64,000 bases of DNA, taken from positions 19,465-83,464 of the forward strand of contig DHFP01000251.1 in assembly GCA_002402315.1 (NCBI GenBank), given 5' to 3'. Numbering within the stretch: the stretch's first letter is position 1; every line of letters begins with the position of its first letter. A program made the translations under genes and the position numbers. The notes below the pieces were generated by a model. That model was not told the DNA's origin. It searched no databases and worked only from the letters and a program-made list of their open reading frames with translations. Shown piece after piece: positions 33,406 through 54,288 of this stretch. The DNA is from Clostridiales bacterium UBA4821. Lineage in GTDB: Bacteria; Bacillota; Clostridia; Acetivibrionales; UBA4821.

Positions 33406-33422
33406 GAGAGGGCGTGAGAGCA

Positions 33423-33680: not shown

Positions 33681-33690
33681 GGAGATGTTG

Positions 33691-36088: not shown

Positions 36089-36178
36089 TACTTAAAGTTG
36101 TGAAAATGAGTTGTGAAAAAATATACAAATAACTTATGGTAGTATATATAGCAATACTTACAAGTATTGCTTGTTTTT

Positions 36179-36233
36179 TGACTTCGGATCAGAGGGCCGG
36201 GGGTTCGAATCCTCCTGGGCGCGCCATGTTAAA
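36179..36233 (+). repeat. attR: displaced 3' fragment of tRNA-Arg (55-bp direct repeat)
   Basis: Identical to 21980-22034. It lacks the 5' half of the tRNA. Confidence 0.9.
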
Positions 36234-37857: not shown

Positions 37858-37887
37858 AACTGACTTCAGGTCAGTTCTTTTTTTATC
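37858..37887 (+). terminator. intrinsic terminator
   Basis: ACTGAC-TTCAG-GTCAGT followed by TCTTTTTTT. A larger CTGACCT/AGGTCAG pairing is also possible. Confidence 0.7.
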
Positions 37888-38084: not shown

Positions 38085-39188
38085 ATGGCAAAGTTACACT
38101 TAGTGATTGCTGATTCGGATGAATCTTATGTAGAAAGTCTGATTAGCTATTTGACAGACAGTTATCCCCAGAAATTCCAGGTAAGTTATTTCACAAAAGA
38201 GGATTATCTGGTTAAACATCTATCTGATACCAGCAAAAAGGTAGATATTTTACTGGTGGGGCCTGAACTGTCCGAGTACATACCTAAGGATAAGATTAAT
38301 ACAATGATAATACTGTCGGATGGCAGACTGCCGGAGAAGTACAGAAGTTGTGCAATGGTTAACAAATATCAGACCGGAGATAAACTGGTAAGCAGTATAT
38401 TGAACATATTCTCTGAAAGAAATGCTGATGAAGTATATATCCAAAGCAGTAACAAACCTACAAGAGTAATTGGGGTTTACTCACCTACCGGTGGAACCGG
38501 GAAAACTTCTATAGCCATAGGTTCAGCTATGCAGTCCGCGCTCAGAGATATGCCGGTATTTTATCTCAATCTGGAGAATGCCCAGTCAACACCGCTTTTC
38601 TTTGATTGCAAAGGAGAACAGAACCTTTCACATATCTTTTATTTTCTAAAAGAAAAAAGTAAGAATATTAATCTAAAGATAGAAGGGGTTAGAATTGTTG
38701 ACCCGAAGTACAACATACATTATTTTGCTCCACCCGAAAGCGTACTCGAGTTTGAAGAGATTTCACCGGACGAATTACAATACCTGATTAACCAACTTAA
38801 AGAATTAGGCTGCTATGATGTAATTTTTATAGATATGTCTTCAAACTTCGACAACAGAAATTTAGCCGTACTTCAGGCGTGTGATGAAATATTTCTGGTA
38901 CTTACGCAGGATGATATATCAGGCATCAAGCTGAAAACATTAATTAGTGAGATGGATATAGCATCCCCCAAAAGCAACGCTAACCTAAATGATAAATTAA
39001 CTTTGATAATCAACAAGTTTAATCCTATGGGACCAACTCAGATTGAGGGCCTTGATATATTAGGCAAGCCTATATCACTGAGGATACCGAAAGTATCGTC
39101 TCTATTAACCCGACAATCAGATAAGTACGTTATAAATCTTAATAACAATTTTGGAGAGGCATTAAAGGGATTGGTTAACAAATATTAA
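38085..39188 (+). CDS. TadZ/CpaE-like pilus assembly ATPase (pseudo-receiver plus ParA/MinD-type domain)
   Basis: N-terminal REC-like fold without an obvious acceptor Asp. Walker A VIGVYSPTGGTGKTSIA. First gene of the Tad operon. Confidence 0.75.
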   Translation: MAKLHLVIADSDESYVESLISYLTDSYPQKFQVSYFTKEDYLVKHLSDTSKKVDILLVGPELSEYIPKDKINTMIILSDGRLPEKYRSCAMVNKYQTGDKLVSSILNIFSERNADEVYIQSSNKPTRVIGVYSPTGGTGKTSIAIGSAMQSALRDMPVFYLNLENAQSTPLFFDCKGEQNLSHIFYFLKEKSKNINLKIEGVRIVDPKYNIHYFAPPESVLEFEEISPDELQYLINQLKELGCYDVIFIDMSSNFDNRNLAVLQACDEIFLVLTQDDISGIKLKTLISEMDIASPKSNANLNDKLTLIINKFNPMGPTQIEGLDILGKPISLRIPKVSSLLTRQSDKYVINLNNNFGEALKGLVNKY

Positions 39189-39207
39189 AGGTTAGAAGGG
39201 AAAGAGT

Positions 39208-40446
39208 ATGAATTCTGCTGAAAGAACGGCATTGCAAAGCGAAATTAGACAGGCAGCCAGAGACAATATTGACCTTAGGAGGGAGTTAACCGATGAAGAG
39301 ATTCAGGACTTGATAACCAGAATTGTTTTTGACAGATCCAAGCAGCATTACATGAGTGTTACTGAGAAACAAGAGATAATAAATACTGTGTTCAATTCTA
39401 TCCGGAGACTGGACATACTCCAGCCGCTAATCGAGGATAAAGCCATTACAGAGGTAATGGTAAATGGTCCGGATGACATCTTTATAGAGAAAGATGGCAA
39501 GGTGGGAAAGCTGGAAATAAGATTTGACTCCCAGGAAAAACTTGAGGATGTTATTCAGACCATAGTATCAAGGGTAAACAGAATAGTAAACGAGTCTTCT
39601 CCAATAGTGGATGCCCGTCTTAAGGATGGTTCAAGGGTTAGTGTAGTTTTACCTCCAATTGCATTAAACGGTCCTATACTAACCATAAGAAAGTTCCCGG
39701 AAAAACCAATGAGCATAAAACAGTTGGTTAAGATGGGATCAATAACTGATCAGGCTGCAGAAGTTTTGCAGAGAATGGTCATTTCAAAGTACAATATTTT
39801 CATTTGCGGGGGAACAGGTTCAGGTAAGACTACTTTCTTAAATGCACTTTCCAATTTTATTCCTGAAGATGAAAGAATTATAACCATAGAAGACTCAGCA
39901 GAATTGCAGATATCAAGCGTTGATAATATTGTCAAGATGGAAACAAGGAATGCAAATACAGAGGGCAAGGGCGAGGTAACAATTAGAGACCTCATAAAAA
40001 CTTCGCTTAGAATGAGGCCGGAAAGAATAGTGGTTGGAGAAGTTAGGGGAGCTGAAGCCTTGGATATGCTGCAAGCCATGAATACAGGACATGACGGTTC
40101 CCTTTCTACCGGCCACGCAAATTCTACTAAAGACATGCTAAGCAGGCTGGAAACCATGGTCTTATGTGGAGCGTCTTTACCATTAGAGGCTATCAGACAG
40201 CAAATAGCTTCGGCCATTGATATAGTTATACACCTTTCAAGAATCAGGGATAAATCAAGAAGAACAATGGAGATAGTAGAGGTGCCCGGTTATAAGGACG
40301 GGGAGATACAACTGAATCCGTTGTTTGTATTTGAAGAAGAGGGTGAAACTGAAGATAAAAAGGTTATTGGTACACTTAAGCGTACAGAAAATAAAATGCA
40401 TAATTTATTAAAATTTAAAATGGCCGGTATTTCTGTGGAAGTGTGA
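39208..40446 (+). CDS. tadA: CpaF/TadA secretion ATPase (T2SS-E family)
   Basis: GGTGSGKTTFLNAL, ITIEDSAEL and RMRPERIVVGEVRGAEALDMLQAMNTGHDGSLSTGHANS. Confidence 0.9.
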   Translation: MNSAERTALQSEIRQAARDNIDLRRELTDEEIQDLITRIVFDRSKQHYMSVTEKQEIINTVFNSIRRLDILQPLIEDKAITEVMVNGPDDIFIEKDGKVGKLEIRFDSQEKLEDVIQTIVSRVNRIVNESSPIVDARLKDGSRVSVVLPPIALNGPILTIRKFPEKPMSIKQLVKMGSITDQAAEVLQRMVISKYNIFICGGTGSGKTTFLNALSNFIPEDERIITIEDSAELQISSVDNIVKMETRNANTEGKGEVTIRDLIKTSLRMRPERIVVGEVRGAEALDMLQAMNTGHDGSLSTGHANSTKDMLSRLETMVLCGASLPLEAIRQQIASAIDIVIHLSRIRDKSRRTMEIVEVPGYKDGEIQLNPLFVFEEEGETEDKKVIGTLKRTENKMHNLLKFKMAGISVEV

Positions 40447-40455
40447 GGTGAAGTG

Positions 40456-41205
40456 ATGTCTAAAATTGATTATAACACTTATATAATGACTCAAAAGGAG
40501 AAGACACTATATATAATAATTGCAGCTATAGCAATTTTTATTGTAGGATATGTCTTCTACCAAAGCTTCGTCTTTTCAGCATTACTCACTCCAGCTGCAT
40601 TATTTTACCCCAAAATTAAAACTAAAGATATCATAAAAAAGAGGAAAGAAGAGCTTAACCTTCAATTCAAGGAAGCTTTATATTCGCTTTCATCATCTCT
40701 CACAGCAGGTAAATCAATAGAAATGGCTTTCAAGGATGCATTGAAGGATATTGTAATTCTTTATCCCGACCCCGATACTTTTATAATTAAAGAATTCCAA
40801 TACATAATAAGAAAGCTGGAAATGAATGAAACAGTAGAGTCAGCGCTGGAGGACCTTGCTAACAGATCTCATGCTGAAGATATACGGAACTTTGTTGATG
40901 TGTTTAAAACATGCAAGAGAACCGGAGGCAACCTGGTACAGGTTATGAAAAATACATCCGACATAATAAACGATAAAATTGTAATAAAGCAGGAAATATC
41001 TACATTACTTTCTCAACGTAAGTTTGAACAAAAAGTTCTTAATCTTGTACCCATAGGCATGATATTTCTATTGTCAACCAGTTCGGCTGATTTCATGAAA
41101 CCTATATTCACGCAAGTTTCGGGCAGGGTTGTAATGACTATTGCTATTGTTTTGCTGGTTACAGCTTACTTTATCTCAAAAAAAATTATGGATATTGAGG
41201 TGTGA
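40456..41205 (+). CDS. tadB: TadB-like platform protein (T2SS-F domain)
   Basis: N-terminal TM, cytoplasmic helical T2SS-F-like domain, C-terminal TM pair. Position after tadA. Confidence 0.7.
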   Translation: MSKIDYNTYIMTQKEKTLYIIIAAIAIFIVGYVFYQSFVFSALLTPAALFYPKIKTKDIIKKRKEELNLQFKEALYSLSSSLTAGKSIEMAFKDALKDIVILYPDPDTFIIKEFQYIIRKLEMNETVESALEDLANRSHAEDIRNFVDVFKTCKRTGGNLVQVMKNTSDIINDKIVIKQEISTLLSQRKFEQKVLNLVPIGMIFLLSTSSADFMKPIFTQVSGRVVMTIAIVLLVTAYFISKKIMDIEV

Positions 41206-41209
41206 TTAC

Positions 41210-42088
41210 GTGTTAGCGGTTTTCATTATTGTACTTATATTGCTGGGAATTCTATTCATACTTTCAAAGAATAAATATGACAGGTTCTTAGCTCTCATAG
41301 ATAAGAAGGCTTATTCCTTAAAAGATTTCATGCCTATGTCCCTTTATATTCTGGATAGTGTGAAGTACAAATTCAACACTAAATATGACCATGGATTACA
41401 ACTTAAATTAGGAGAATTATATGAGCATAAAAATTCGAGGTATTTCCTCCAGATTCACTGGGCTAATAAGATTGCCCTGATGCTGCTTATGATACTGGTC
41501 ATTGCATTTCTCGGCACGGCTATGGGAAATCCGGACACTTCTTTTGTATTCTTTAGCGTAATTGCATTAGCGGGAGCTTTTTATCTGACAGATAAGGAAG
41601 TAGAGGATAAACTCAAAAAAAGGCATCTCTTAATGCAAATTGATTTTCCTGATTTCCTCAATAAGCTGATCTTGTTGGTGAACGCGGGAATGACCGTACC
41701 CAAGGCAATGGAGAAGATAGTATTGGAGAGACATATTGAAGACAAAGAAAAGGATAGGCCTTTATACTATGAGCTTTATACTGCTTTGATGGAAATTCAG
41801 GCGGGAAAACCGGATACCAAAGCATATGAAGACTTTGCCAAGAGGTGTAAGATACCAGAGATAACAAAATTTACGTCGGTAATCATTCAAAATATAAGAA
41901 AAGGAAATGCGGAATTGGTTTCCATACTAAGACTTCAAGCTGTTGAATGCTGGGAAATACGTAAAAATGTTGCCAAGAGATTAGGGGAAGAGGCTTCTAC
42001 CAAGCTGCTTTTTCCTATGATGATAATGTTTGCTGCTATTTTGCTTATTGTTGTTACGCCGTCTGTGATGCAGCTTCAAGGGTTTTAA
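41210..42088 (+). CDS. tadC: TadC-like platform protein (T2SS-F domain)
   Basis: GTG 41210 lies 8 nt after GAGGTG. Same architecture as the preceding gene. Confidence 0.7.
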   Translation: MLAVFIIVLILLGILFILSKNKYDRFLALIDKKAYSLKDFMPMSLYILDSVKYKFNTKYDHGLQLKLGELYEHKNSRYFLQIHWANKIALMLLMILVIAFLGTAMGNPDTSFVFFSVIALAGAFYLTDKEVEDKLKKRHLLMQIDFPDFLNKLILLVNAGMTVPKAMEKIVLERHIEDKEKDRPLYYELYTALMEIQAGKPDTKAYEDFAKRCKIPEITKFTSVIIQNIRKGNAELVSILRLQAVECWEIRKNVAKRLGEEASTKLLFPMMIMFAAILLIVVTPSVMQLQGF

Positions 42089-42117
42089 AAAACACATTTG
42101 AAAGGGGGTGGACAAGT

Positions 42118-42327
42118 ATGACGAAGTTAATAAAAGATTTTATAAAAGAAGAAGACGGGTTGGGGACTGTAGAAATTGTACTGATTATTGCTATATTAGT
42201 AGGTCTTGCTTTACTTTTTAAGAAGCAAATTGTAGGATTTGTAGCGAAAATATTGGGTGGATTTGTTGGCGCTGAAGTGAACTCAAACAGCATTGAGAAT
42301 ACGCCTGTAAATGGTGGTGTCCAGTGA
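42118..42327 (+). CDS. flp: Flp-family type IVb prepilin
   Basis: 69 codons. Leader ...KEEDGLG followed by TVEIVLIIAILVGLALLF. Classic Flp processing site and hydrophobic helix. Confidence 0.85.
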   Translation: MTKLIKDFIKEEDGLGTVEIVLIIAILVGLALLFKKQIVGFVAKILGGFVGAEVNSNSIENTPVNGGVQ

Positions 42328-42335
42328 TATTTGTT

Positions 42336-42364
42336 GGAAGCATATGCACAAGCTATATGCTTCC
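42336..42364 (+). other. 10-bp perfect hairpin immediately after flp (attenuator or RNA-stability element)
   Basis: GGAAGCATAT-GCACAAGCT-ATATGCTTCC, with no U-tract. Confidence 0.55.
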
Positions 42365-42386
42365 CTCCCTAAGGAGGTGGGATTTA

Positions 42387-43049
42387 TTGAAAACAAATAA
42401 AGGAAGTATTGTGGTAGAAGCTTCATTAGTATTTCCTGTTGTTTTTCTAGCCATTATAGCAGTTATGTATATGTGTATGCTGTTATACCAGAAGGTATAT
42501 ATTCAGTCTATTGCAGACCTGGGGGTCGAGAGAGGAGCTGCAACGTGGAGTAACCCTGCAAAAGATACAGCATTAGGCAGTTTAACTCAAGAAGACTTGA
42601 AGTCGGGTGGACTATATTGGAGGCTGTTCGACCTTGAAAGGGACAAAAGGAGAAGTAATTTAAAAAATTACATTGAAAAGAGATTAGGTGCATTTAACAT
42701 ATTGGAATCTATCATGGACCCTGGCCAAAGGGTTAGTGTTGAGATAGTTGATTACATTATTTATAAAAAGCTGGTAGTTTCAGTCAATGAGAGGTATAAG
42801 ATTCCCGTTGGGAAAACTTTAAGGATGTTTGGTCTGGATGAAAATTATGCTGTATCAGTCAGGTCGGAGGCAGTTTTGAATGAACCTGTAGAGTTTATTA
42901 GAAATACCGACTTTATACTGGATGTGGAAAAGGAATTTGAGAAGACTTATAAAGAATATGGAGAACTAATTTCAAAAATCCGTTCAAGTATGGATGACAT
43001 ACAAGCCAGGATTGCAAAGTTTTTTGAGGAGAAAGAGGGGAGTCAATGA
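42387..43049 (+). CDS. TadE-like minor pilin/pseudopilin
   Basis: TTG 42387 follows AAGGAGGTG. N-terminus KGSIVVEASLVFPVVFLAIIAV is the TadE-type class III signal. Confidence 0.7.
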   Translation: MKTNKGSIVVEASLVFPVVFLAIIAVMYMCMLLYQKVYIQSIADLGVERGAATWSNPAKDTALGSLTQEDLKSGGLYWRLFDLERDKRRSNLKNYIEKRLGAFNILESIMDPGQRVSVEIVDYIIYKKLVVSVNERYKIPVGKTLRMFGLDENYAVSVRSEAVLNEPVEFIRNTDFILDVEKEFEKTYKEYGELISKIRSSMDDIQARIAKFFEEKEGSQ

Positions 43050-45469
43050 GGCAGGATAATCAACGCGGTGCAATAACTGTTTTCTTAAGTATTATTATAC
43101 TGGTAATCATAATTTTTGCCGGTGTATTGGTTGATGGAGCCAGAATAAGAACCGGGGAAACACAGGTCAAAAGAGCTGTTGAAAGTGCTGTAAAGTCAAC
43201 CCTTGCCGGCTATGACAACCCATTAAAACAGCGCTATGGCATATTTGCCCTGCATGAAAATAGTCCGGAGAAGTTGGAAAACACTATAAAGGAGTATATA
43301 AACTTAAATCTGACAAGTGACCTGGGTAAAAATAAAACAGATATGTTTGATGAGACTTACGATTATTTAAAAGGTCTTATTACTAATGACGGACAATTCA
43401 AAGAAGCCAGATTTCTAAACCTTTATGACTACAAAATTGAAGAGGTCAAGGTCACACCTATATTCAACCTTACCGAAAATCAGGTTGCGAGAAATCAGAT
43501 TGTTGAATTTATGAAGTATAGAGCACCCAAACAAGTCTTGGAAGGTTTCTGGGATAAAGTGCAGGCAATGGGAGACACGGGAAAGGTAGCTGAGATTTCA
43601 GAACTCAAGATGCAAATCGACAAACTATATATAGATATTATTAAAGACCAGGAGACACTAAAAAAAACAGTTGATGAAATAAATACTTTCAGTTATAGCA
43701 CATTGGATAGCTATTTTAAGCCTTATCTAACTGCAGTTAATACTGTCAGAAGGTGCAAGAAAGCAATAGAAGAGATAAATGAAGCAATTGAAGCAGCAAG
43801 TAAAAAGGATCCTCCTGATGAAGACTCATTAGAATCGCTTTATGAAACCAAGAGCAGGTTGGAAGAAAAAGAGGCAAAAGCGTCTAAGGAGAGAGACCAA
43901 TATTATAACCTTCTAAAACCATACCTGGAAAAATACAGGATACTTAACTTGGAAGCGGTGCCTGTAGTAATTCGTTTGAAATATAGTGTCATAGAAATAA
44001 AACAGAAAATCATTATGCTGAAGGAATATACAAAGAACCAGGTCAATGCGTCTTCAAGCAGTTATCTTAAAGACTTGTCACAAGACATTTTAAGGGGTGC
44101 GACCGATGATAGCAAGTCTCACAGCATTGAAGCCATAGAAAAGAACTTACCTGATGAAGCTGACGTAAATAAAGCAGTTACTGATCTTGAATTTAATAAA
44201 AGAATAACATCGTACGTTGCCGGGGAGGTCAAATCCTTTCACGATATGTACGCAGACTCAATACGACATGGTGATCCGGAGGCGGATGTAAGTCCATTTA
44301 TCCTGCGAAAGGTGGAACAATTAAAGGAATATAAGAACAAAGTATACATAGGCAGGCTTATTCAAGAAAAGTGGACTGGAGGCAGTGCGGTTGGACAAGA
44401 TTCCAGAGATGACGCAGCGAAAGAGGCAAAAGACATCTTGGAACAGAAGGAGGATGAGAAAGAAAGCCTGCTGAAGCTGCATAAAAAAGAACTGCCTTCA
44501 TATAAGACAGATAACACATATCCTAATAAGGAAATCAGCAAAGACTTCTCTAAAGAAGATGAGGACTTCAGGAAAAGGTATGAGACATTCAGCAGTGGAG
44601 GTAAAGCCGGAAATAAAGAACAACCGGGAGATACAAGCGAGGATATGCTGAATAACCTGAATAATGAAATAGACCTCGATAATAACAACTTTTTCACTAA
44701 AGCGTTTGATACTGTTAAGAAGATGGGAAATGCCGTTAAGGATTTTGCCTATAACGGTATGCTGAGTTGTAGGGACGAACTTTACGTAAATGAGTATATA
44801 ATAGGCACGTTTAATAATGCTGTACCGGAACTGAAGGATAAGACCAGTACTGCAAACGATTTGAGAGGCAGCCCAAAGGATAAGACAATTAAGTATGAGG
44901 TTGAATATATTTTGTGCGGAAGCACCTCGGAAAATTTCAATCTGAACTTTGTAAAAGGCCAGATACTGCTTATAAGGTTTGCAGTTGATACTATTAATAT
45001 TTATAGAGACCCTGCCAAGGTTAGAACGGCACTTGCAATGGCTACTGCCATAAGCGGCTCGTGGTCGTTTGGACTGGCGGTGCCAATTGTTCATAATCTG
45101 ATAATATGCGGTTGGGGAATGAAAGATGCTGTAACCGATCTGAATAAATTGATGACGGGTGAGCATGTTCCTCTATTTAAGAAGTATAACCCGGTTAATA
45201 CTGCTAAAAATGAAATAACCTTTTCCTATCATGATTACCTTAGAATTTTTTTGCTGATAGAACCGAAGGAACAAAAAATGAACAGAATTGAAGACCTGAT
45301 TCAGGTTAAGACTGGAAAAAAACTTTCAGGTGTTAATACATACCTGAGAATAGAAGCTATTGTGTCCATGAGATATTTGTTTATGACTCAGGCATTTATG
45401 CCTGGTGAATATAAAACACCCGACGGTGCGAGGCATAAATTTAAGGTTATCATGTACCAGGGATATTAG
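43046..45469 (+). CDS. TadG-like large pilus-associated protein (Tad N-terminal domain)
   Basis: QRGAITVFLSIIILVIIIFAGVLVDGARI N-terminus. 807 codons with coiled-coil and acidic segments. Confidence 0.65.
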   Translation: MRQDNQRGAITVFLSIIILVIIIFAGVLVDGARIRTGETQVKRAVESAVKSTLAGYDNPLKQRYGIFALHENSPEKLENTIKEYINLNLTSDLGKNKTDMFDETYDYLKGLITNDGQFKEARFLNLYDYKIEEVKVTPIFNLTENQVARNQIVEFMKYRAPKQVLEGFWDKVQAMGDTGKVAEISELKMQIDKLYIDIIKDQETLKKTVDEINTFSYSTLDSYFKPYLTAVNTVRRCKKAIEEINEAIEAASKKDPPDEDSLESLYETKSRLEEKEAKASKERDQYYNLLKPYLEKYRILNLEAVPVVIRLKYSVIEIKQKIIMLKEYTKNQVNASSSSYLKDLSQDILRGATDDSKSHSIEAIEKNLPDEADVNKAVTDLEFNKRITSYVAGEVKSFHDMYADSIRHGDPEADVSPFILRKVEQLKEYKNKVYIGRLIQEKWTGGSAVGQDSRDDAAKEAKDILEQKEDEKESLLKLHKKELPSYKTDNTYPNKEISKDFSKEDEDFRKRYETFSSGGKAGNKEQPGDTSEDMLNNLNNEIDLDNNNFFTKAFDTVKKMGNAVKDFAYNGMLSCRDELYVNEYIIGTFNNAVPELKDKTSTANDLRGSPKDKTIKYEVEYILCGSTSENFNLNFVKGQILLIRFAVDTINIYRDPAKVRTALAMATAISGSWSFGLAVPIVHNLIICGWGMKDAVTDLNKLMTGEHVPLFKKYNPVNTAKNEITFSYHDYLRIFLLIEPKEQKMNRIEDLIQVKTGKKLSGVNTYLRIEAIVSMRYLFMTQAFMPGEYKTPDGARHKFKVIMYQGY

Positions 45470-45477
45470 GGGTTATT

Positions 45478-46701
45478 ATGAGTAGATTTGAGAGTAGCAG
45501 GGGTTCGTTGACGGTTGAAGCTTCTATAGCATTACCTGTATTTATCTGTGTAATTATAAGCATAGCTTTCTTTATGAAAGTTTTTTATGTACATGAAATT
45601 ATTCAACATGCAATTTCAGATACAGCAAGCGAAATATCTACGTACAGCTACATTTATTCAGTAAGCGGTATTCAGAAGCTGCATGATGAAACCGCCGATG
45701 GGCTTGAAAAAGAGAAAGAAGTAGCCCAGAGGCAGGTGAAGACTGTAGTTAATTCAGTTAATGCTTTCAGGGAGGTTAATGACGAAATAAATGACACTGC
45801 TGAAAGTGTAAAAACCGGAGACGTGGGTGAAACAATAGAAAACCTTGATGAGTTGTACCAATCAACCGAGGAATTGGAAAATAGGTATAAAGACCTTGAA
45901 ACGGTTGTCAAGGAAATTGCAAATAATCCAAAGCAAGAGTTAAAAAGCCTTGCTAGTGCATTTGCCAGAACCGGATTTGAAGATATGAAAGCAGAATTGA
46001 TATTAAAGCCAATGACTAAAGCATTTATGGTCAAACACCTTAAAGGCGGAAATGTTAATGATGCAGACAAGAGATTGATAAGCCTGAATGTGGTTGGTGG
46101 GTTTGATGGGCTGGATTTTAGTCAATCCAGGCTGTTTGAAGATAAAAAGCATATAGATATAATTGTGAGGTATAGGGTAAAACTTAACCTGCCTGTAAAT
46201 GTGTTGCCCGAACTGAATCTGGTTCAGCGTGCAACTGTAAGAGCATGGCTGGATGGAGAGGGAGCGCCCGGGGGAGCAATTTCAAATAAAGAAGATATAT
46301 GGGCATTGAGTGATTGGGAAAGAGGAAGAAGGATTCAGGAGATGTACGGTAGGAATCTACCGGAAAATTTCGAGACATTAACCAAATTTGATAATGGAGC
46401 TGCTGCAGTAGTTACAAGCATCAATTTAAACAATAAAACCTACCAGGATAATAAACGTGCCGTAGCATACAGAGTGAACAGCGTTATTAACAGTTTCATA
46501 AATTTTAAGGAAGACCGGAAGAAAGTTGTAGAGAATGGGAAAACGGTTGAATACTATGTAAACGTAAACCAGATTAAAGAGAAGCGGATAATAGTGGTTA
46601 TTCCAAAAGGGTCACAGACCAAAGAATTTGAACAGGTGTTAAAAGAGTGCCGGGAAAATGCACAGGTGAACGGCATAAATCTGGTGTTTGAAGAACTATG
46701 A
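45478..46701 (+). CDS. TadE/TadF-like pseudopilin with a large C-terminal domain
   Basis: SRGSLTVEASIALPVFICVIISIAFF N-terminus. Confidence 0.65.
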   Translation: MSRFESSRGSLTVEASIALPVFICVIISIAFFMKVFYVHEIIQHAISDTASEISTYSYIYSVSGIQKLHDETADGLEKEKEVAQRQVKTVVNSVNAFREVNDEINDTAESVKTGDVGETIENLDELYQSTEELENRYKDLETVVKEIANNPKQELKSLASAFARTGFEDMKAELILKPMTKAFMVKHLKGGNVNDADKRLISLNVVGGFDGLDFSQSRLFEDKKHIDIIVRYRVKLNLPVNVLPELNLVQRATVRAWLDGEGAPGGAISNKEDIWALSDWERGRRIQEMYGRNLPENFETLTKFDNGAAAVVTSINLNNKTYQDNKRAVAYRVNSVINSFINFKEDRKKVVENGKTVEYYVNVNQIKEKRIIVVIPKGSQTKEFEQVLKECRENAQVNGINLVFEEL

Positions 46702-46714
46702 CAAGGAGCATGTT

Positions 46715-47335
46715 ATGAATTTTATTTTGATAATCATTATTGGTGTAATGCTTGCGGGTATAATCAACTTCTTTGCATATTCCGGGAAAAAGGAGCAATC
46801 TCTAATACAACGGTATCTTGATTCTCTTTATGGAGATAATAAATGTTTACTCACGCAAGCAGTGCTGATTACAATATCCATATTACTTTACAGGTCTTAT
46901 GGATTAAGTATTCAGTATGCAAGCTATATTTTATTAAGCGCCATACTGACTGCTGCAGCAATAGTTGATGTGCAAAAACAGGTCATTCCTGATATTTTAG
47001 TTATTATCAGTCTTGTGATAGGGACATTAATGATATTTCTTAATCCTGAATTATCATTATTAAGGTCTGTTCTTGGTGCACTGCTGGCAGGTGGAATTTT
47101 ACTATTTATATCAGTTATTTCAAAAGGCAGTTTGGAAATTGGAGATGTCAAGTTATTTACCGGCGCAGGGCTATTCCTGGGGATAGAAAATGGTTTATCG
47201 GCACTGCTGATTTCTGCAGTATTAAGCGGGTTGGCGGGACTGGTACTGATAGTAAAAAGTGTTTCTGACAGGAAGAAGACTATGCCTTTTGCACCGTTTA
47301 TTTTGGCTGGAGTTCTAATTACCATATTAATGTAA
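46715..47335 (+). CDS. A24-family prepilin peptidase (TadV/CpaA type, no methyltransferase domain)
   Basis: ATG 46715 follows AAGGAG. Candidate catalytic Asp residues in IVDVQKQVIPD and GDVKLF. Polytopic. Confidence 0.8.
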   Translation: MNFILIIIIGVMLAGIINFFAYSGKKEQSLIQRYLDSLYGDNKCLLTQAVLITISILLYRSYGLSIQYASYILLSAILTAAAIVDVQKQVIPDILVIISLVIGTLMIFLNPELSLLRSVLGALLAGGILLFISVISKGSLEIGDVKLFTGAGLFLGIENGLSALLISAVLSGLAGLVLIVKSVSDRKKTMPFAPFILAGVLITILM

Positions 47336-47347
47336 GGGGGACTTTAT

Positions 47348-48805
47348 ATGTTGGATTTGATTAAGGAGCGTTTTAACTTTAGCTATGAGACTGATGCAGC
47401 ATCAAGTTACCTGGTGATAAGTCTGAGTCACAGTGAGAAAATAATTAACTACCAGGTTGAAATGATAGCGAATAATTCTGCTGATTCAATACTTCCGCTT
47501 AGTGTCACGCAAAAGGATGACAGGATAAATCTACACTATAATATTACTTCAAAACAGTCCTTATCTCAGTTTCTAAAGAGGAAAAAACTGAAGAGAGACG
47601 AGTTTATAGAATTATTAAAAAATATCACAAGGACTTTCTTAGATAGTAAAAACTACTTTCTATCTGATAAAAACTTTCTTCTGGCAGAAGAATATGTATA
47701 TGTAAATCCTGTGACATTAGAAGCTTCATTGGCTTACTTACCTATATCATTAGAAATAGATTTCTTAATAGTATTCAAGGATTTTATAACCAACTTGATA
47801 ATCAATTCAGCTCATATTGATGAGAATTGTAGTGATAATTTTCTTCAAAGGATTTTAAATCACCTTAAAGCTAATACATTTAACGTAGGGAGCTTTGATA
47901 AGCTCTTAATAGAATTAAGAACAGGAACTGTACCGGAGGCACCTGAGAGGAGTGGTTTCGACCAGAAGCAGGTACAGACAATAAAAAATGCTTCGGAGGA
48001 TTTGAAGATACGGATACCCCGGCAAGTAGGTCAAAAGCCTGGCAAGCAAGAAGAAGTACGGTATAAGTCAAATATCATTCTGATTGCCGCATTATCTCAA
48101 ATATTAATTGTTATAGCAATGGTTATACTGTATCAGACTGTCCTAGTAAAAGAAGGAACAGATTCTTCTTCCGTCTTTGGATTAATTCTAATAGCCGGTG
48201 CAATAGACTTTGTGATATTAAAGAACCTGCTTGATAAAAAAAATATGGAGGTTATTGAGGCAACAGCCATACAAAAGAATAATAAGCTGCCATTAGATTT
48301 TGAAGATAATAGTCCAACACCTGAAGAGATAAGAATTTTTAGTACCGAAGCTCATAATCGGCAAACTAAGCAGGACAAGCTTCTGAATGTCAAAGATTCA
48401 AATTCAGAAAGTTTTAGCGAAACTGCATCAACATTTCAGAACACGGAGGTTATTTGTACCGGTAGGGAAGATGAAACGGCTATTTTAGGCCGTTCTCAGG
48501 AAAGGCATCCATATCTAAAGAGTGTCAAAGATGGTGTTGTGGAGATAATATCCATTACCAAGCCCAGTTTTGTGATAGGAAGGCTAAAAGACCAGGTTGA
48601 TTTTGTATCAAAGAACAATGCCGTAGGTAAGGTTCATGCCGAGATTATCATCCGGGATGGATTATTCTACATCAAAGACTTGAATTCAAGGAACGGAACC
48701 TACATAAATGGTGAAAGGATAAACAGCAATACCGAGTACCGGATAAAGAACCAGGATAAAATCACGTTGGCTAACTGTGAATATATATTTTACGAGGAGG
48801 TATAG
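47348..48805 (+). CDS. membrane protein with a C-terminal FHA domain
   Basis: Two central TM helices. C-terminal FVIGRLKDQVDF...VGKVHAEIIIRDGLFYIKDLNSRNGTYINGERI is an FHA signature (G-R...S-x-x-H...N-G). Confidence 0.8.
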   Translation: MLDLIKERFNFSYETDAASSYLVISLSHSEKIINYQVEMIANNSADSILPLSVTQKDDRINLHYNITSKQSLSQFLKRKKLKRDEFIELLKNITRTFLDSKNYFLSDKNFLLAEEYVYVNPVTLEASLAYLPISLEIDFLIVFKDFITNLIINSAHIDENCSDNFLQRILNHLKANTFNVGSFDKLLIELRTGTVPEAPERSGFDQKQVQTIKNASEDLKIRIPRQVGQKPGKQEEVRYKSNIILIAALSQILIVIAMVILYQTVLVKEGTDSSSVFGLILIAGAIDFVILKNLLDKKNMEVIEATAIQKNNKLPLDFEDNSPTPEEIRIFSTEAHNRQTKQDKLLNVKDSNSESFSETASTFQNTEVICTGREDETAILGRSQERHPYLKSVKDGVVEIISITKPSFVIGRLKDQVDFVSKNNAVGKVHAEIIIRDGLFYIKDLNSRNGTYINGERINSNTEYRIKNQDKITLANCEYIFYEEV

Positions 48806-48807
48806 CA

Positions 48808-49050
48808 GTGGAGCTGGAACACATATTTTTGGCTATAGCAATCCTTACCCTGGCATGTAACATAGTGCTGGTGATCTTCCTGATTAGGAATAGCAGGTTA
48901 AGAAAAACTGAATGTAGAAACATCAGTACTCAGTCAAAACAATTTCCGCCTCGAGTAAATCAGCCTAATAATAGGCGCAATGCCGTAAGTATGGGTAATC
49001 AAGGGATGGAAGAAGTCCCTCCTACAGAAATATTGAGTGGTCAGGATTAA
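48808..49050 (+). CDS. 80-codon single-TM protein
   Basis: GTG 48808 follows GAGGAGG. N-terminal TM. Translationally coupled between the FHA and kinase genes. Confidence 0.5.
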   Translation: MELEHIFLAIAILTLACNIVLVIFLIRNSRLRKTECRNISTQSKQFPPRVNQPNNRRNAVSMGNQGMEEVPPTEILSGQD

Positions 49051-49076
49051 ATAAATAGAGAGTAGTACGGAGGGAT

Positions 49077-51212
49077 ATGTTGTTGGTAGGGAAAATACTT
49101 AACGGGAAATATAGAATAGAAAAGCAGCTTGGCAGAGGCGGCATGGGCTGTGTTTATCTATCTGCAAATATTGAGCTGGGTAACCTATGGGCTATAAAAC
49201 ATATAAGCAGACAGGAGAGCAATTCCAGTTTTCTACTGGCTGAAGAAGAAATTTTAAAGAAGCTGAACCATATAAGCCTGCCTAAAATTATAGATGTATT
49301 TTATGATGAAATGGGAACGTATATAGTTGAAAGTTATATAGAAGGTACAACCCTGGAGGAAAAGTTAAAAGCGGAAGGGTACTTTGCTGAGGATACCGTC
49401 ATAGAATGGGCAAAGCAGTTATGCGAGGTTTTAATATATCTTCATGGTATGGAGCCGCATCCTGTCATATATAGGGATATGAAGCCGTCCAATATAATTA
49501 TAACAAGGGATAACAGGGCGGCAATAATTGATTTCGGCATATCCAGGGAATACAAGGGAGAAACCGCAAAGGACACATTTATTGCCGGTACGTGTACCTA
49601 TGCAGCACCCGAACAGCTTACTGCAGTAGGATATACCGACCAAAGAACAGATATATACAGTCTGGGGGTTACCCTTTACCATTTGTTAACCGGAATGGTC
49701 CCGGAATATAATGTTGTAGGCCTTAGGGTTTGCAACCCGGATATTTCTCCGGAGATGGACTACATTGTCCAGAAATGTATACAGAAGAACCTGGAAGACC
49801 GATATCAGAGTGCAGAAGAACTGAAAGCAGACTTGGATAATATCAGAGAGTTAAAGATTCAAAATAGAAAGGAAGCTTTGCTCAATAAATTCTTAATTGC
49901 AGGTATAGTGGTATCGTCACTTATATCATACTCAATGTCATTTTTGGGGCTTCAGCAAATCAGCAGGGAGAAAACGGTTATTCTTGATATCAACCCCAAG
50001 ATGCTTGTAATGACCGAACAGCAGATCGGCCAAATACTGGTGGAGAAAATATTCAATGATGGTGACAGACAGGGTTTGGATAATGAAAGGGTAACCTGGA
50101 CTTCTTCAAATGAAAAGGTAGCAAAAGTAGAAAATGGTAAGGTTCTGGCAATGAATGCAGGCAAGGCACAGATTACAGGAAGGTTCAAGAATAAAATTGT
50201 TCAGCTGGATGTCAGTGTTAGCGAAAGACTTAATGACTATGTAAACGTAAATCTGAAGTATAATAAGGACTATTATGTAGAAACTTTTGCAGGAAGCGGC
50301 GAGAGGGATACTAAGGATGGAAATCTTCAACAGGCAGGTTTTCTCGAACCAACAAGTATGACTATGACTTCGGATGGCGCCATCTATGTTGTAGACAGCA
50401 GCATAAGAAAGATTCATGGCGGCAGGGTTGAAACCATTAGTATTGAACCTGGCTACATAGAGCCCAAAATTATCAGAAGCAGCCGCAGGGATGGACTGTT
50501 TATAGCCAGCAAGGAATGGATTACTGAGAACGAAGAGTACAAAATAGGCATTTTTAAGCTTGGCAGGAATAGTGTGGAATCAATATATGAAGACAATGGA
50601 GAGATGTTTTCATTCGAAGATTTTGCATTTGACAGCTCGGGCAGCGCATATGTATTGGAGAGGGATTTAATTAATGAAGTATTCAGATTAATAAAAATAG
50701 ACCCCGGCAACAGAACAAACGAGGTATTAAAGGAGGACCTGGATGGAGTGGACTGTATTACAATAAATAAGGACAATGAGATTTATTTGTCAAACGGCAA
50801 GTACGGAACCATCTATAGATGGGAAAATAATAAGAAGAATGTTGTGTATATTGCCGGACTATACAATCAAAAACACTTCATTGACGGAAAAGATAACAGG
50901 TTTTTTTCACCAGGCAGGATATATGCAAGTGAATCAAGTATATATGTGATTGACCATGATGTAATCCGCAAGTTAAATATAATTCAGGGAAGGGTGGTAG
51001 AGACAGAAACAATTGCCGGACAAGTCTCTGACCGGAATCAGGGTATTTTAGACGGGACAGGGATTGAAGCTGCTTTTGGAGCAGATGCCAATAACGATAT
51101 TATCGTAGACGGCAATGGAAATATCTATATCTCAGACACGGATAATAGTGTCATTAGAAAGATTTACAGGAAAGAGAACGAGCCAACCCTTATCAGAACA
51201 GGAGGAAGATGA
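49077..51212 (+). CDS. Hanks-type Ser/Thr protein kinase with an extracytoplasmic Big_2-like plus NHL/beta-propeller-like sensor
   Basis: GRGGMGCVY, AIK, YRDMKPSNIII, DFGISRE and YAAPEQ. TM near residue 275. VTWTSSNEKVAKVENGKV...AGKAQITG is Big_2-like. Repeats of the ...IYVVDS..IRKI... type follow. Confidence 0.85.
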   Translation: MLLVGKILNGKYRIEKQLGRGGMGCVYLSANIELGNLWAIKHISRQESNSSFLLAEEEILKKLNHISLPKIIDVFYDEMGTYIVESYIEGTTLEEKLKAEGYFAEDTVIEWAKQLCEVLIYLHGMEPHPVIYRDMKPSNIIITRDNRAAIIDFGISREYKGETAKDTFIAGTCTYAAPEQLTAVGYTDQRTDIYSLGVTLYHLLTGMVPEYNVVGLRVCNPDISPEMDYIVQKCIQKNLEDRYQSAEELKADLDNIRELKIQNRKEALLNKFLIAGIVVSSLISYSMSFLGLQQISREKTVILDINPKMLVMTEQQIGQILVEKIFNDGDRQGLDNERVTWTSSNEKVAKVENGKVLAMNAGKAQITGRFKNKIVQLDVSVSERLNDYVNVNLKYNKDYYVETFAGSGERDTKDGNLQQAGFLEPTSMTMTSDGAIYVVDSSIRKIHGGRVETISIEPGYIEPKIIRSSRRDGLFIASKEWITENEEYKIGIFKLGRNSVESIYEDNGEMFSFEDFAFDSSGSAYVLERDLINEVFRLIKIDPGNRTNEVLKEDLDGVDCITINKDNEIYLSNGKYGTIYRWENNKKNVVYIAGLYNQKHFIDGKDNRFFSPGRIYASESSIYVIDHDVIRKLNIIQGRVVETETIAGQVSDRNQGILDGTGIEAAFGADANNDIIVDGNGNIYISDTDNSVIRKIYRKENEPTLIRTGGR

Positions 51213-51739
51213 AAATAGATATTAAGTTTATTGAAGTTATCGTACTGGTGCTGTTAGCTTTAATTAGTGATATCAAGACATTTAAAATAAAAAACATAAT
51301 TATCCTTCCGTTTATTCTAATAGGGCTAATAACTAATACAGTTATGGATGGGATGGCAGGACTGGTTCTCTCCTTGCAAGGTATTTTTGTACCAATACTT
51401 CTGCTTGGATTGTTTTTTATACTGAGAATGCTTGGGGCAGGTGATATAAAGCTGTTTAGCGCCATTGGAGCTATAACTGGAATGGAGTCAGTGGCGTATA
51501 CCATTATCTATTCATTTCTGGCCGGAGGTGTAATTGCGCTGACTATTATGATTATGAATAAGAATGGCAGAAAGAGGTTTGCTTACTTGCTGAACTATTT
51601 TAAGAGCTGTATCTTAACGCTGTCACTGCTTCCCTACACTGATTTTCAAGACAAAAGTGATGGTGCGAAGTTCCGTTTCACTTATGCTATAGCCTGCGGA
51701 GTTATACTTCAATTGCTTTGGATGCCGCCCTTCTGGTAA
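51209..51739 (+). CDS. second A24-family prepilin peptidase
   Basis: ATGA overlap with the kinase gene. ISDIKTFKIKN and GAGDIKLFSAIG motifs. Polytopic. Confidence 0.75.
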   Translation: MKIDIKFIEVIVLVLLALISDIKTFKIKNIIILPFILIGLITNTVMDGMAGLVLSLQGIFVPILLLGLFFILRMLGAGDIKLFSAIGAITGMESVAYTIIYSFLAGGVIALTIMIMNKNGRKRFAYLLNYFKSCILTLSLLPYTDFQDKSDGAKFRFTYAIACGVILQLLWMPPFW

Positions 51740-51902: not shown

Positions 51903-51945
51903 ACTCGTACATTCTAATAAAGTTTCGTCTAAAGGAGTGAAAATC

Positions 51946-54288
51946 TTGAAAAAATTAATTGCAACATTTATTTTTACATTGCTTGCATTCAATTTCATAA
52001 TTGTATGCCATGCCCAGAATATAACCATCAGTTTAAGTGCCGGAGAGAGCTATGAATTTACGAATACTGGCCGGATTGAAAGTACAATCCAGACAAGTAA
52101 TCCTTATTTATCAAATTCAGTATACGACTATGCAATTTATAACCAGGATGGTTCGGTACATGAAACCGGTATGCTTAAAAGTCAATTAGGTATTTACAAA
52201 GTTCCGGCTGGAGGCCGTATGGTAATAACGGTAATTTCATCCTCAAAACCTATGGAATTCTGGGGTTCAGACCAGTCCTTAACCGGCAAGCCGGCTGATG
52301 AACCGGCATTGCATAGGATAACCCTGAAACCTGGAGAGAACTATGAGTTTTCGAACAATGGAACAGCGGAAGACTCACTTGAAGTTGTAGGAGATGATAA
52401 CAACCTCATTAGTTATGATTATGCTGTTTATAACAAAGATGGCACGGTATACCACAGCAGTATTTCAGTCAGCTATAACACAAGTATTAAAGTACCGGCT
52501 GGCGGACGGGTGGTTATAACGGCTGCCTTAACATCAAAGCCTGTCAGCTTTGGCGGAGCCGGTCAATTTTTTTCCGGGAGTTTTAGCGTAAATCTGGCGC
52601 TGTACAGGGTAACGATGAAGGCCGGAGAAAGCTGCGAATTTCTGAACAGCGGCCTTCAGAAAAACACTATTGAGACGTATACGGCCAACCCTAGTCTAGC
52701 AGAATATAGTTTTAAAGTTTATGACCAAGATGGAAAGCTTTATTATGATAGCAATGTACCGATTAATTACGAGACAAGCATTAAAGTCCCACCGGGGGGA
52801 AGATTGGCAGCAGCAGTATCATCATCCTCAAGCCCGGTAGAATTTGGGGGATGTTTTGAATTTTTTAACCCGGCAGGAACAATGGTAGATTCAAATGAGT
52901 TAAAGCAGATTTTTCAGTATGAGAATATTGAAAAGGCAGATAGCACTACTGATGTTTTAAGTGCAGTATCGGAAGCCTATTCAAAGTTATCCGGACAGTT
53001 GAAACAGAATGATGATGTAAAGGAAAAAAGCCTGCAGTTTGGAGAATATGCAATTGAGAAAATAGCAACAAGAGAAATAGCCGGACAGGATGAAATTTTA
53101 CAAATAAACTACGATACAATTAAAGAACAGCTTAAAGAGGCAGAAACAGCAGCCGGGAAGGTTGAAGAACTTTTGAAACAGAATAAAATCGATACTAACA
53201 GAGAACTGGAGTTAAGTATAAAACTCAAAGCAGTTGGGGTGGAGAAAGACTTTGCGGCAGCAGTACAAAAGGATTTGGTAAAGGGTTTGGGTATCTTACA
53301 CAATATAAGAGTTGATAACGGAGAAGTGATAGTAACACTGCCGGTTAAAAATATTGAGAAGGAAATAGGTACCAGCAGCGGCCTGACCATTGAGGTAAAT
53401 AAGGAGACCAGAGCAGTTAAAAGTATTATCAGCCATAGAGGAGCTTCAGGGATAAGTATGAAGAATATGGCTTACTCGGATATTTCTTCTGTTGAATCAC
53501 CGGTTTACCGGATTGGGCTAAAACAAGGTGAAAAAACGGTTAGCAAGCTTAACAGCAATATCAAGCTTGCGTTTCCCATAGCAGAAGAAGATCCGGAGTA
53601 TAACTGCGTATTCATTGTTGAGGGAGAAGGCAGTCAGATTGCAGAACCTGTTGGTGGAAAATATGTTCAGGTAACCGGAAAAATTGAGATTGAGTCAAAA
53701 AGTGCCGGGAGATACTACGTTAAGGAAAACAGGAAGACTTTTAAAGATATAGGCTCAAAGGATGCAATGATGAAAAAAGCCATAGAGGTAATGGCTTCAA
53801 AGGGGATAATCAGTGGAAAAGATGAGAACAATTTTGACCCTGACGGAGTGGTTAGCCGTGCTGAGCTTGTAAAACTGATAGTGCGAACTCTTTATTCCAT
53901 GGATAAGGATGCAAAAGCTGATTTTAAGGATGTACCCGATAAAGCCTGGTATTATCCATATGTCGCATCTTCTAAAAAGGAGGGTCTGGTTAACGGGTAT
54001 CCGGATAATACTTTCAGGGGTAAAAATACTATAACTAAAGAGGAAATTATAAAGGTTTGTGCAGCTTCCCTGCAAGGAAAGAAAAGATATAAGCATCCGG
54101 AGAATGAAGGTAAGTATATAGTTTTTAAGGACAATACCTCAGTACCTGATTGGGTAAGGAAATACCTGGCATTAGCTGTCAGGGAGGGCTTGATTATTAG
54201 AAGGGCAGACGGCAACTTTCAAGGTAGTAAGCCTATGACCAGGGGAGAAACCGCACTTATCTTATACAGGTTATTTGAAAAAATGTAG
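51946..54288 (+). CDS. S-layer-homology (SLH) anchored surface protein with three N-terminal tandem repeats
   Basis: Signal peptide. Three ~97-aa repeats (52021-52878). Three C-terminal SLH motifs (FKDIGSKDAMMKKAIEVMASKGIISG, FKDVPDKAWYYPYVASSKKEGLVNGY, FKDNTSVPDWVRKYLALAVREGLI). TTG 51946 lies 8 nt after AAAGGAG. Confidence 0.85.
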   Translation: MKKLIATFIFTLLAFNFIIVCHAQNITISLSAGESYEFTNTGRIESTIQTSNPYLSNSVYDYAIYNQDGSVHETGMLKSQLGIYKVPAGGRMVITVISSSKPMEFWGSDQSLTGKPADEPALHRITLKPGENYEFSNNGTAEDSLEVVGDDNNLISYDYAVYNKDGTVYHSSISVSYNTSIKVPAGGRVVITAALTSKPVSFGGAGQFFSGSFSVNLALYRVTMKAGESCEFLNSGLQKNTIETYTANPSLAEYSFKVYDQDGKLYYDSNVPINYETSIKVPPGGRLAAAVSSSSSPVEFGGCFEFFNPAGTMVDSNELKQIFQYENIEKADSTTDVLSAVSEAYSKLSGQLKQNDDVKEKSLQFGEYAIEKIATREIAGQDEILQINYDTIKEQLKEAETAAGKVEELLKQNKIDTNRELELSIKLKAVGVEKDFAAAVQKDLVKGLGILHNIRVDNGEVIVTLPVKNIEKEIGTSSGLTIEVNKETRAVKSIISHRGASGISMKNMAYSDISSVESPVYRIGLKQGEKTVSKLNSNIKLAFPIAEEDPEYNCVFIVEGEGSQIAEPVGGKYVQVTGKIEIESKSAGRYYVKENRKTFKDIGSKDAMMKKAIEVMASKGIISGKDENNFDPDGVVSRAELVKLIVRTLYSMDKDAKADFKDVPDKAWYYPYVASSKKEGLVNGYPDNTFRGKNTITKEEIIKVCAASLQGKKRYKHPENEGKYIVFKDNTSVPDWVRKYLALAVREGLIIRRADGNFQGSKPMTRGETALILYRLFEKM

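Follow-up and report, generated by a model that had tools for sequence, protein, structure and literature searches.

Some of the closest described counterparts of the system reported here belong to the T7SSe and T7SSf variants of the type VII secretion system (T7SS). Garrett et al. 2024 described among their parts a DUF6382-FHA protein (TseJ/TsfJ), a protein with a single transmembrane (TM) helix (TseK), a membrane Ser/Thr kinase (TseD), a PPM phosphatase (TseF/TsfF) and a TadZ-like ATPase (TsfV), and noted Tad genes adjoining T7SSg/h; neither a Tad association nor a pseudokinase fold of DUF6382-FHA appears in that study (PMC11217815). In our study, a 64,000-nt stretch of contig DHFP01000251.1 from Clostridiales bacterium UBA4821 (positions 19,465 to 83,464 of the forward strand; the window, hereafter) was analysed, and 38085-51739 of it is a monoderm (Bacillota-type) Tad/Flp pilus operon without a secretin. 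Its gene for a DUF6382-FHA membrane scaffold protein (47348..48805, + strand) was followed by genes for an 80-aa single-pass protein (48808..49050, +) and a 711-aa receptor Hanks-type Ser/Thr kinase (49077..51212, +). We consider it probable, with moderate confidence, that assembly of the Tad pilus is under phospho-control through this kinase and the DUF6382-FHA scaffold.

In common with T7SSe/f, the window's DUF6382-FHA protein has the two-TM form of TsfJ and is encoded together with a small single-pass protein, a Hanks kinase and a TadZ-like ATPase. The differences lay in the kinase ectodomain, which is made of immunoglobulin (Ig)-like and NHL domains, and in the machine served, a Tad pilus. 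A reading of the locus as T7SSe/f was rejected, as neither EssC nor WXG100 was found among the scanned window open reading frames (ORFs) of at least 140 aa, whereas both were present in [Ruminococcus] torques (L028), in the order kinase - TPR protein - DUF6382-FHA - TadZ-like ATPase - EssC - WXG100.

A second set of counterparts shares a predicted fold and not sequence. In T7SSb, the pseudokinase YukC, an assembly hub, binds the YukB/EssC FHA domains (PMC13037476; PMC11217815), an interaction that is presumed to be phosphorylation-independent in the case of EssC FHA and EssB (PMC11217815), and TraF has been proposed as a like hub in Gram-positive type IV secretion systems (T4SS; PMC13037476). 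DUF6382 was linked neither to the pseudokinase fold nor to Tad in the latter report (PMC13037476). Like EssB/YukC and the TraF of the pIP501 T4SS, the scaffold carries a membrane-anchored, predicted cytoplasmic pseudokinase in a monoderm envelope-spanning machine and pairs it with FHA, as YukC is paired with YukB; this likeness is one of predicted fold, with no detectable sequence similarity between DUF6382 and EssB/YukC/TraF. EssB and TraF cross the membrane by a single TM helix and place their C-terminal domain outside the cell, whereas the TM hairpin of the scaffold brings the chain back to a fused, cytoplasmic FHA domain.

Links between FHA domains and Tad systems are already known in diderms, namely class III CpaF bearing FHA at its N-terminus, the Myxococcus Kil system and the Bdellovibrio tad neighbourhood, and phospho-signalling has been proposed there. 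In those systems FHA is fused to the ATPase or carried by soluble proteins, whereas the window encodes a separate pseudokinase-TM scaffold and a TadA without FHA. In the H1 type VI secretion system (H1-T6SS) of Pseudomonas aeruginosa, PpkA, Fha1 and PppA likewise bring together a membrane Hanks kinase with an extracytoplasmic sensor, an FHA scaffold and a PP2C (the last, for our locus, in relatives) within the operon of a nanomachine. The machine, the FHA architecture and the sensor domain all differ, and the scaffold reached only 32 bits against the cut-off of 120 for the T6SS FHA model TIGR03354 (TagH/Fha1); T6SS-like gating is plausible as an analogy only. That analogy was already raised for the Tad-like Kil system by Seef et al. 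(PMC8460266).

Compared with the described Tad/Flp loci (Aggregatibacter tad, Caulobacter cpa and the Eubacterium rectale TadZ locus), the window shares TadZ, TadA/CpaF, TadB, TadC, a Flp prepilin, pseudopilins of the TadE/F/G type and an A24 peptidase that is TadV-like and lacks a methyltransferase domain. It differs by having no secretin or pilotin, two A24 peptidases and a DUF5702 pseudopilin, to which are added a DUF6382-FHA protein, conserved in the class, and, in this lineage, a receptor kinase with its small partner. Many gut and cellulolytic Firmicutes adhere and colonise by means of Tad pili, and the assembly and regulation of Gram-positive Tad machines are essentially unstudied. Our literature search found no description of DUF6382-FHA as a regular clostridial Tad component or of its pseudokinase fold, none of the conserved T-x-x-L site, of kinase and PP2C alternating in one slot or of a block of kinase, small partner and SLH protein, and no account of Tad being controlled by a kinase or phosphatase in Firmicutes. 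The novelty is nevertheless narrower than an earlier note on this DNA had claimed, because the T6SS analogy had been drawn for Kil (PMC8460266) and the same set of DUF6382-FHA, kinase and phosphatase had been published for T7SSe/f (PMC11217815).

Distribution of the scaffold and kinase genes

One genome per species was scanned with a DUF6382-FHA alignment, and the 80 loci returned were annotated using the window proteins. The scan pattern was keyed on the FHA motif, and 53 of the 80 loci, which held unrelated FHA proteins, were kept as background. DUF6382-FHA and tad genes occurred together in 27 species-level loci (a lower bound) from Lachnospiraceae, Blautia, Hungatella, Lachnoanaerobaculum, Vallitalea, Acetivibrio and unclassified Clostridia. 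The usual order was A24 - tadZ - tadA - tadB - tadC - flp - DUF5702 pilin - ... - A24 - (tadE) - DUF6382-FHA, and its recurrence across the 27 loci indicated that two A24 peptidases and a terminal DUF6382-FHA gene are standard for this class of Tad locus. DUF6382-FHA is thus regular in clostridial Tad loci and not confined to T7SS variants. The earlier note had taken the kinase-FHA pair between two peptidase genes as no part of the canonical Tad plan and had proposed a neighbourhood survey in Clostridia: the FHA gene and both peptidases proved ordinary in orthologous Tad loci, while the kinase is a rare addition that was absent from most, no Hanks kinase lying within 10 kb on either side in any of the 27.

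Among the proteins most closely related to the window's FHA protein (42-49% identity), the gene slot after the scaffold gene was filled in one of two ways. A PP2C gene and then the second A24 gene followed the FHA gene in L082, L083 and L099, and likewise in L005, L007 and L093. In the window and its identical copy in a public assembly (L001), as well as in L085 and L102, the FHA gene was followed instead by the small TM protein and the kinase, an arrangement seen only in the window's clade; L087 holds just the kinase-A24 end of the small TM-kinase-A24 block. The order FHA - small TM - kinase - A24 (-SLH) recurred at 49-62% protein identity (L085, L087, L102), and in L102, whose kinase is 62% identical, it was kept in full, with the SLH gene ca. 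8 nt past the peptidase gene. The earlier note had seen no PP2C in the window, and indeed no PP2C, second kinase or second FHA protein was found there; in the six relatives named above, PP2C occupies the kinase slot. This alternation of kinase and PP2C beside the FHA gene is the strongest comparative argument for a scaffold wired to Ser/Thr phosphorylation, and suggests that the kinase and its obligate small partner were recruited, in the window's lineage, into a slot that holds PP2C in relatives. Kinase and PP2C in one gene slot amount to a natural experiment that points to threonine phosphorylation as the control input.

Several of these loci carried other genes of note. The FHA-PP2C-A24 trio remained joined even when apart from other tad genes, and in L099 two GH9-CBM3-dockerin cellulase genes (5110-9641) lie between an A24 gene and the FHA-PP2C-A24 block. 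An IS110 element (7139-8395, - strand) separates tadB from tadC in L083, and an RHS/YD toxin gene (2314-7143, -) abuts the tad pseudopilins in L082.

Approximately 35 full-length orthologues of the kinase were found (ca. 700 aa, 38-88% identity), all with the kinase-TM-Ig-NHL architecture, and a metagenome scan with the kinase ectodomain returned 10 loci. In about 8 of 15 orthologue loci the kinase adjoins tad genes, and it does so in two ways, after the FHA gene or directly upstream of tadZ (L086, L088, L089, L093), which indicated at least two independent kinase-Tad arrangements. In L093, the kinase, tad genes, DUF6382-FHA and PP2C are all together.

FHA-matching ORFs adjoin the kinase and small partner in L086 (17165-18673), L088 (1027-3378) and L089 (6312-8696). 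By precomputed annotation, the L086 ORF is an Rv1747-like FHA-FHA-ABC transporter, which recalls the PknF-Rv1747 pairing of Mycobacterium tuberculosis. Beside non-Tad kinase orthologues, short FHA proteins are encoded in L097 (12150-12881, -) and L098 (5089-6171, -). By eye, these have an XRE-type, helix-turn-helix-like N-terminus, with no Pfam match, and, ahead of FHA, a T-x-x-hydrophobic motif of their own; the same kinase family may act on transcription through them.

The scaffold, the kinase and its small partner

The scaffold protein matched the Pfam families DUF6382 (1e-28) and FHA (2e-16). DUF6382 (aa 1-195) is joined by a disordered linker to a TM hairpin (243-291), from which a second disordered linker, containing T377, leads to the FHA domain (aa ~389-482). 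The protein had earlier been called bitopic; two TM helices were predicted instead (243-261 and 273-291), as in 159 of 189 DUF6382 family members, and therefore its N- and C-terminal domains are both expected to be cytoplasmic. An AlphaFold2 (AF2) model built with 34 homologues comprised two confident domains, the TM hairpin and the two disordered linkers.

DUF6382 modelled alone by AF2 reached a predicted local distance difference test score of 92 and a predicted template-modelling score of 0.87. In Foldseek, this model matched the TraF-N pseudokinase of pIP501 (3e-6), PknA (5e-5) and YukC/EssB (1.7e-4), with further fold matches to Mnk1 and the T7SSb core unit. A DUF6382 sequence profile searched against PDB sequences gave a sole, non-significant match (E 0.31) to an unrelated hypothetical protein. 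S68, Y103 and P132 were the only invariant residues, and the catalytic Lys/Asp set was not conserved, indicating that the domain is a pseudokinase, with a predicted EssB/YukC/TraF-like fold. A family of 9,011 clusters at 50% identity (E <= 1e-3) hence gains a predicted fold, a topology and a candidate phospho-site.

The modelled FHA domain superposed on phosphothreonine (pThr)-binding FHA structures, namely DgcB with its own phosphorylated tail, EmbR, GarA and FhaA. In the 34-sequence alignment, the binding pocket was kept at G411, R412 (R in 27/34, K in 7/34), K/R428, H430, S447 and N449, and phosphopeptide binding by the domain is plausible, although not assured.

The candidate phospho-site lies ca. 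12 residues before the first FHA strand, where T377 was invariant in 34/34 aligned homologues within a linker that is otherwise unconserved and modelled at low confidence. The motif there is [E/D/N]-T-x-x-[L/I/M], read as DETAIL in the window, and T-x-x-L is the classical FHA ligand motif. A T-x-x-[LIMV] motif within 40 residues upstream of FHA was present in 182 of 189 FHA-bearing family members, compared with 46% in composition-matched shuffles; several of the 7 exceptions listed carry T-x-x-W, and T7SS-type family members have several T-x-L-L repeats at the place equivalent to T377. A conserved Thr in a flexible segment before FHA is also a feature of GarA and OdhI, and GarA and DgcB were among the best structural matches; intramolecular pThr binding, as in GarA/OdhI, is hypothetical for the scaffold.

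The kinase (Pkinase 2e-46) has its kinase domain at residues 12-246 and a TM helix at 267-285, followed by an extracellular Ig-like (Big_2) domain and an NHL beta-propeller. The Big_2 and NHL matches were marginal in Pfam, and a profile of the ectodomain from 8 orthologues, searched against PDB, matched teneurin-like NHL propellers (5e-33), SOQ1, the PknD sensor 1rwi (1e-8) and an Ig-like domain, which upheld the Big_2 and NHL exterior proposed for this Hanks kinase from the sequence. The Gly-loop, K41, E56, D134, K136, N139, D152 (DFG) and APE were all invariant in 34 kinase orthologues, so that the catalytic residues of the kinase are intact. The architecture of kinase, TM helix and NHL propeller is that of M. 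tuberculosis PknD; in contrast to PknD, the window kinase has an extra Ig-like domain, and it scored 63 bits against the PknD equivalog cut-off of 839.

The 80-aa partner matched no Pfam family. It has a TM helix at 8-26, a basic stretch and a disordered tail whose last residues are PTEILSGQD. Of 12 orthologue loci checked, 11 have a homologous small gene (68-117 aa) directly 5' of the kinase gene; its product starts with a TM helix, continues with a basic stretch and closes with a disordered, acidic tail, with ends such as MTEIL* (L102), DTVLL* (L085) and DTEIL twice (L086); a TQVL motif was also found among these tails. Such ends are of the same type as the T-x-x-L motif at T377 of the scaffold.

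Downstream of the operon, a gene for an SLH-anchored cell-wall protein (51937..54288, +; three SLH domains in Pfam) is a probable associated gene. The N-terminus of its product consists of three repeats of ca. 100 aa without any family match. In L088, L089 and L102, the kinase is adjoined by a full-length orthologue (E 5e-148 to 6e-157), and L087 has a weak, end-of-contig SLH match after its peptidase and nothing more. The SLH gene may be the fourteenth of the unit, or its product may serve the kinase ectodomain as partner or ligand.

Candidate phospho-control and its alternatives

Under phospho-control, the kinase ectodomain would sense a cue at the envelope or surface, in which the co-conserved SLH wall protein may take part, and the kinase would phosphorylate T377 of the scaffold, the TEIL threonine in the tail of the small partner, or both. 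The FHA domain would bind that pThr either in cis, as a GarA/OdhI-like switch, or in trans, through recruitment or oligomerisation. Engagement of TadZ/TadA by the pseudokinase hub would then be altered, and pilus assembly licensed or blocked, with a PP2C encoded elsewhere in the genome resetting the switch. Since Tad and T7SS contexts share DUF6382-FHA and a TadZ-like ATPase, with a kinase and/or a phosphatase, we infer that the TadZ-like protein is the most likely direct partner of the scaffold.

Several observations weigh against this explanation. Most DUF6382-FHA Tad loci have no kinase or phosphatase nearby. About half of the kinase orthologues (L090-92, L094, L096-98) have no tad genes within 10 kb. 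The Ser of the FHA S-x-x-H motif is Gly427 in the window protein (Gly in 27/34 homologues, Ser in 7/34), and therefore pThr binding could be weak or absent. The T-x-x-hydrophobic motif is short and was present in nearly half of the shuffled linkers, and we infer co-transcription of the genes from spacing only.

A broader explanation, which we hold only tentatively, makes DUF6382-FHA an unrecognised assembly hub of monoderm Tad pili and part of a portable phospho-switch cassette shared with T7SSe/f. The cassette would consist of DUF6382-FHA, in which an EssB/YukC/TraF-type pseudokinase is fused to FHA, together with a TadZ-like ATPase and one of two enzymes, PP2C or a Hanks kinase. The surface-sensing NHL kinase, the TEIL-tailed partner and the SLH wall protein would set the T-x-x-L switch and so turn assembly on or off. 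If this is true, three envelope machines of Gram-positives that are unrelated to one another (T7SS, conjugative T4SS and Tad) would share the principle of a pseudokinase hub, and confirmation would link Tad, T7SS and Gram-positive T4SS by a common pseudokinase-FHA hub logic.

The small TM protein and the kinase could otherwise form a general envelope sensor for other FHA proteins, such as the short FHA proteins or the Rv1747-like FHA-ABC transporters, with Tad unregulated and the scaffold acting independently. In 6-7 orthologue loci, the pair lies beside a 243- or 360-aa FHA protein and the surrounding 10 kb hold no tad genes, in L086, L088 and L089 the kinase is flanked by FHA-ABC transporters, and the species-level Tad loci had the kinase in 0/27 cases. 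The non-tad loci, in which the pair adjoins a short FHA protein and often an SLH protein, include those of Pseudobacteroides cellulosolvens and Acetivibrio cellulolyticus; the kinase may have other or additional targets. However, more than half of the orthologue loci (8 of ~15) touch tad genes, in two arrangements; in the window, the kinase gene shares 4 nt with the Tad peptidase gene and sits in the PP2C slot of relatives; and the scaffold FHA is closely related to the FHA domains of the short proteins encoded beside the kinase (E 6e-23). We consider it unlikely that the kinase is merely a passenger of the Tad operon.

We give a little less credence still to a scaffold that works without phosphorylation, whose FHA domain would bind the pseudokinase or TadZ/TadA in the absence of pThr while the kinase or PP2C acts elsewhere, for example on TadZ or the pilins. 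The Gly that replaces the S-x-x-H Ser in most members would fit such a scaffold, as would the many loci with neither kinase nor phosphatase and the precedent of EssC FHA and EssB, presumed phosphorylation-independent (PMC11217815), given the EssB/YukC fold predicted for DUF6382. The conservation, or near conservation, of R412, S447, N449 and H430, the invariant Thr adjoining FHA in a canonical pT-x-x-L context and the recurrence of PP2C or kinase genes directly beside the scaffold gene all argue against it. Least likely, and very improbable, is a contact-dependent weapon in which a Tad-like machine delivers a nuclease-like pseudopilin domain and the kinase and FHA protein fire on contact, as in T6SS or Kil: the pseudopilin's match to CDI_toxin_EC869_like, the RHS toxin gene adjoining tad pseudopilins in L082 and the abundance of FHA proteins in Kil, a Tad-like killing system, are outweighed by the Lys lost in the sole, weak alignment to CdiA-CT, by the lack of an immunity-like gene next in line and by the fixation of the domain in the pilins of several loci, unlike in polymorphic toxins.

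Core genes, transcription unit and surroundings

The operon comprises 13 ORFs, all on the + strand and at the coordinates given in the ORF listing of the window. Domains were assigned to them by a Pfam profile search, which returned T2SSE, T2SSF, Flp1_like, TadE, Tad, Peptidase_A24, FHA and Pkinase and, with the ORF listing, bore out the thirteen-gene Tad/Flp operon of the earlier note; the quoted motifs GGTGSGKTT, EEDGLG|TVEIV, YRDMKPSNII and DFGISRE were all found. The note's label of type IVb was replaced, as type IVc is now the usual class for Tad pili. None of the 10 proteins scanned reached the cut-off of any NCBIfam model, and therefore no equivalog names were given to these proteins.

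The first gene (38085..39188, +) encodes a TadZ/CpaE-like protein with an atypical receiver and a ParA/MinD-type ATPase domain (Pfam TadZ-like_ARD, AAA_31 and CbiA). Its TadZ-like_ARD score of 27.4 bits was exactly the cut-off, and the ATPase matches were at or below threshold; TadZ orthologues occupied the same position in ca. 25 loci. It is followed by the TadA/CpaF secretion ATPase (39208..40446, +; T2SSE 1e-60), whose top NCBIfam match was a TadA-family ATPase model at 304 bits, under the equivalog cut-off. The platform proteins TadB (40453..41205, +) and TadC (41210..42088, +; longest ORF from 41141, gene call from 41210) matched T2SSF with E-values of 2.5e-7 and 1.7e-10. The 69-aa Flp-type prepilin (42118..42327, +; Flp1_like 7e-17) has a predicted cleavage site, G|TVEIV, within EEDGLG|TVEIVLIIAIL, leaving a hydrophobic mature N-terminus.

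Three pseudopilin genes follow: a TadE-like one (42324..43049, +; Pfam TadE, alternative start 42387), a large TadG-like one with a Tad N-terminus and DUF5702 (43046..45469, +; DUF5702 2e-36) and a TadE-like one with a C-terminal CDI_toxin_EC869_like domain in Pfam (45478..46701, +). The DUF5702 pseudopilin was syntenic in every surveyed locus, and a literature search on DUF5702 found no papers. In the third, 407-aa pseudopilin, aa 291-403 matched the CdiA-CT EC869-like family, with a restriction-endonuclease fold, at 29.9 bits against a cut-off of 27, and the domain is kept in the corresponding pilins of L002, L005 and L085. In a weak alignment (E 0.07) to the CdiA-CT structure 4zqu, VVSAKSLD of the toxin corresponds to VVTSINLN of the pilin, so that the putative catalytic Lys is lost; a nuclease toxin was thus judged unlikely, and the domain is probably non-catalytic.

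The two A24 prepilin peptidases, one TadV-like of 215 aa (46688..47335, +; alternative start 46715) and one of 176 aa (51209..51739, +), both matched Peptidase_A24 and have no methyltransferase domain. Their activity is predicted from sequence, the candidate catalytic Asp residues being D94/D153 in the first and D21/D79 in the second. No secretin (RcpA/CpaC) was found among the window ORFs scanned, which was expected, as the host is a spore-forming monoderm and a secretin does not define Gram-positive Tad loci. The window is chromosomal and from a spore-former; it carries spoIIAB/sigF-like genes and genes for MetRS and an intein-bearing PcrA, and the closest named relatives of the locus proteins are from Acetivibrio and Pseudobacteroides species.

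The close packing on which the single transcription unit had been proposed held in part. The 4-nt overlaps at 43046/43049 and 51209/51212 were verified, the latter being that of the second peptidase start with the kinase stop, and junction inspection found a Shine-Dalgarno sequence before each of the FHA, small-protein and kinase genes. The gaps of 2-30 nt did not all stand: an independent gene call on the identical contig L001 placed later starts for tadC (41210), tadE (42387), the third pseudopilin (45508) and the first A24 peptidase (46715), and therefore some intergenic gaps widen to 38-59 nt. The 5' boundary of the unit is a terminator-like hairpin and T-run (37858..37876, +; an 8-bp stem, then CTTTTTTTAT) that ends the upstream thioredoxin/DsbD unit and is followed by a 208-nt leader. 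A scan of the whole window with Rfam matched a tRNA only, with no cyclic di-GMP or other riboswitch in the leader. Counts from the promoter and terminator scan equalled those of shuffled sequence, this hairpin alone was useful and no internal terminator was conspicuous, so that the operon structure rests on spacing and synteny. No terminator-like site was found in that scan between 51739 and the SLH gene at 51937, and since the SLH gene is syntenic in relatives, the unit may reach 14 genes.

The operon lies outside a 14.2-kb prophage remnant (22035-36178) that ends 1.85 kb upstream of it and has on each side 55 nt from the 3' part of tRNA-Arg(TCG), in direct orientation and without mismatch (21980-22034 and 36179-36233). 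The remnant carries a truncated integrase gene (22153-22734, -), virion- and tail-like ORFs, an ORF for 1410 aa (29123-33355) that matches neither a Pfam nor a PHROG family, and an endolysin gene (33685-34434). A 35-nt, promoter/RBS-like direct repeat (26371-26405 and 27194-27228; 74% identity) precedes two consecutive ORFs of the remnant. Further upstream, the intein of the PcrA/UvrD helicase (17974-21324) was recognised by an Intein_splicing match at aa 537-615.

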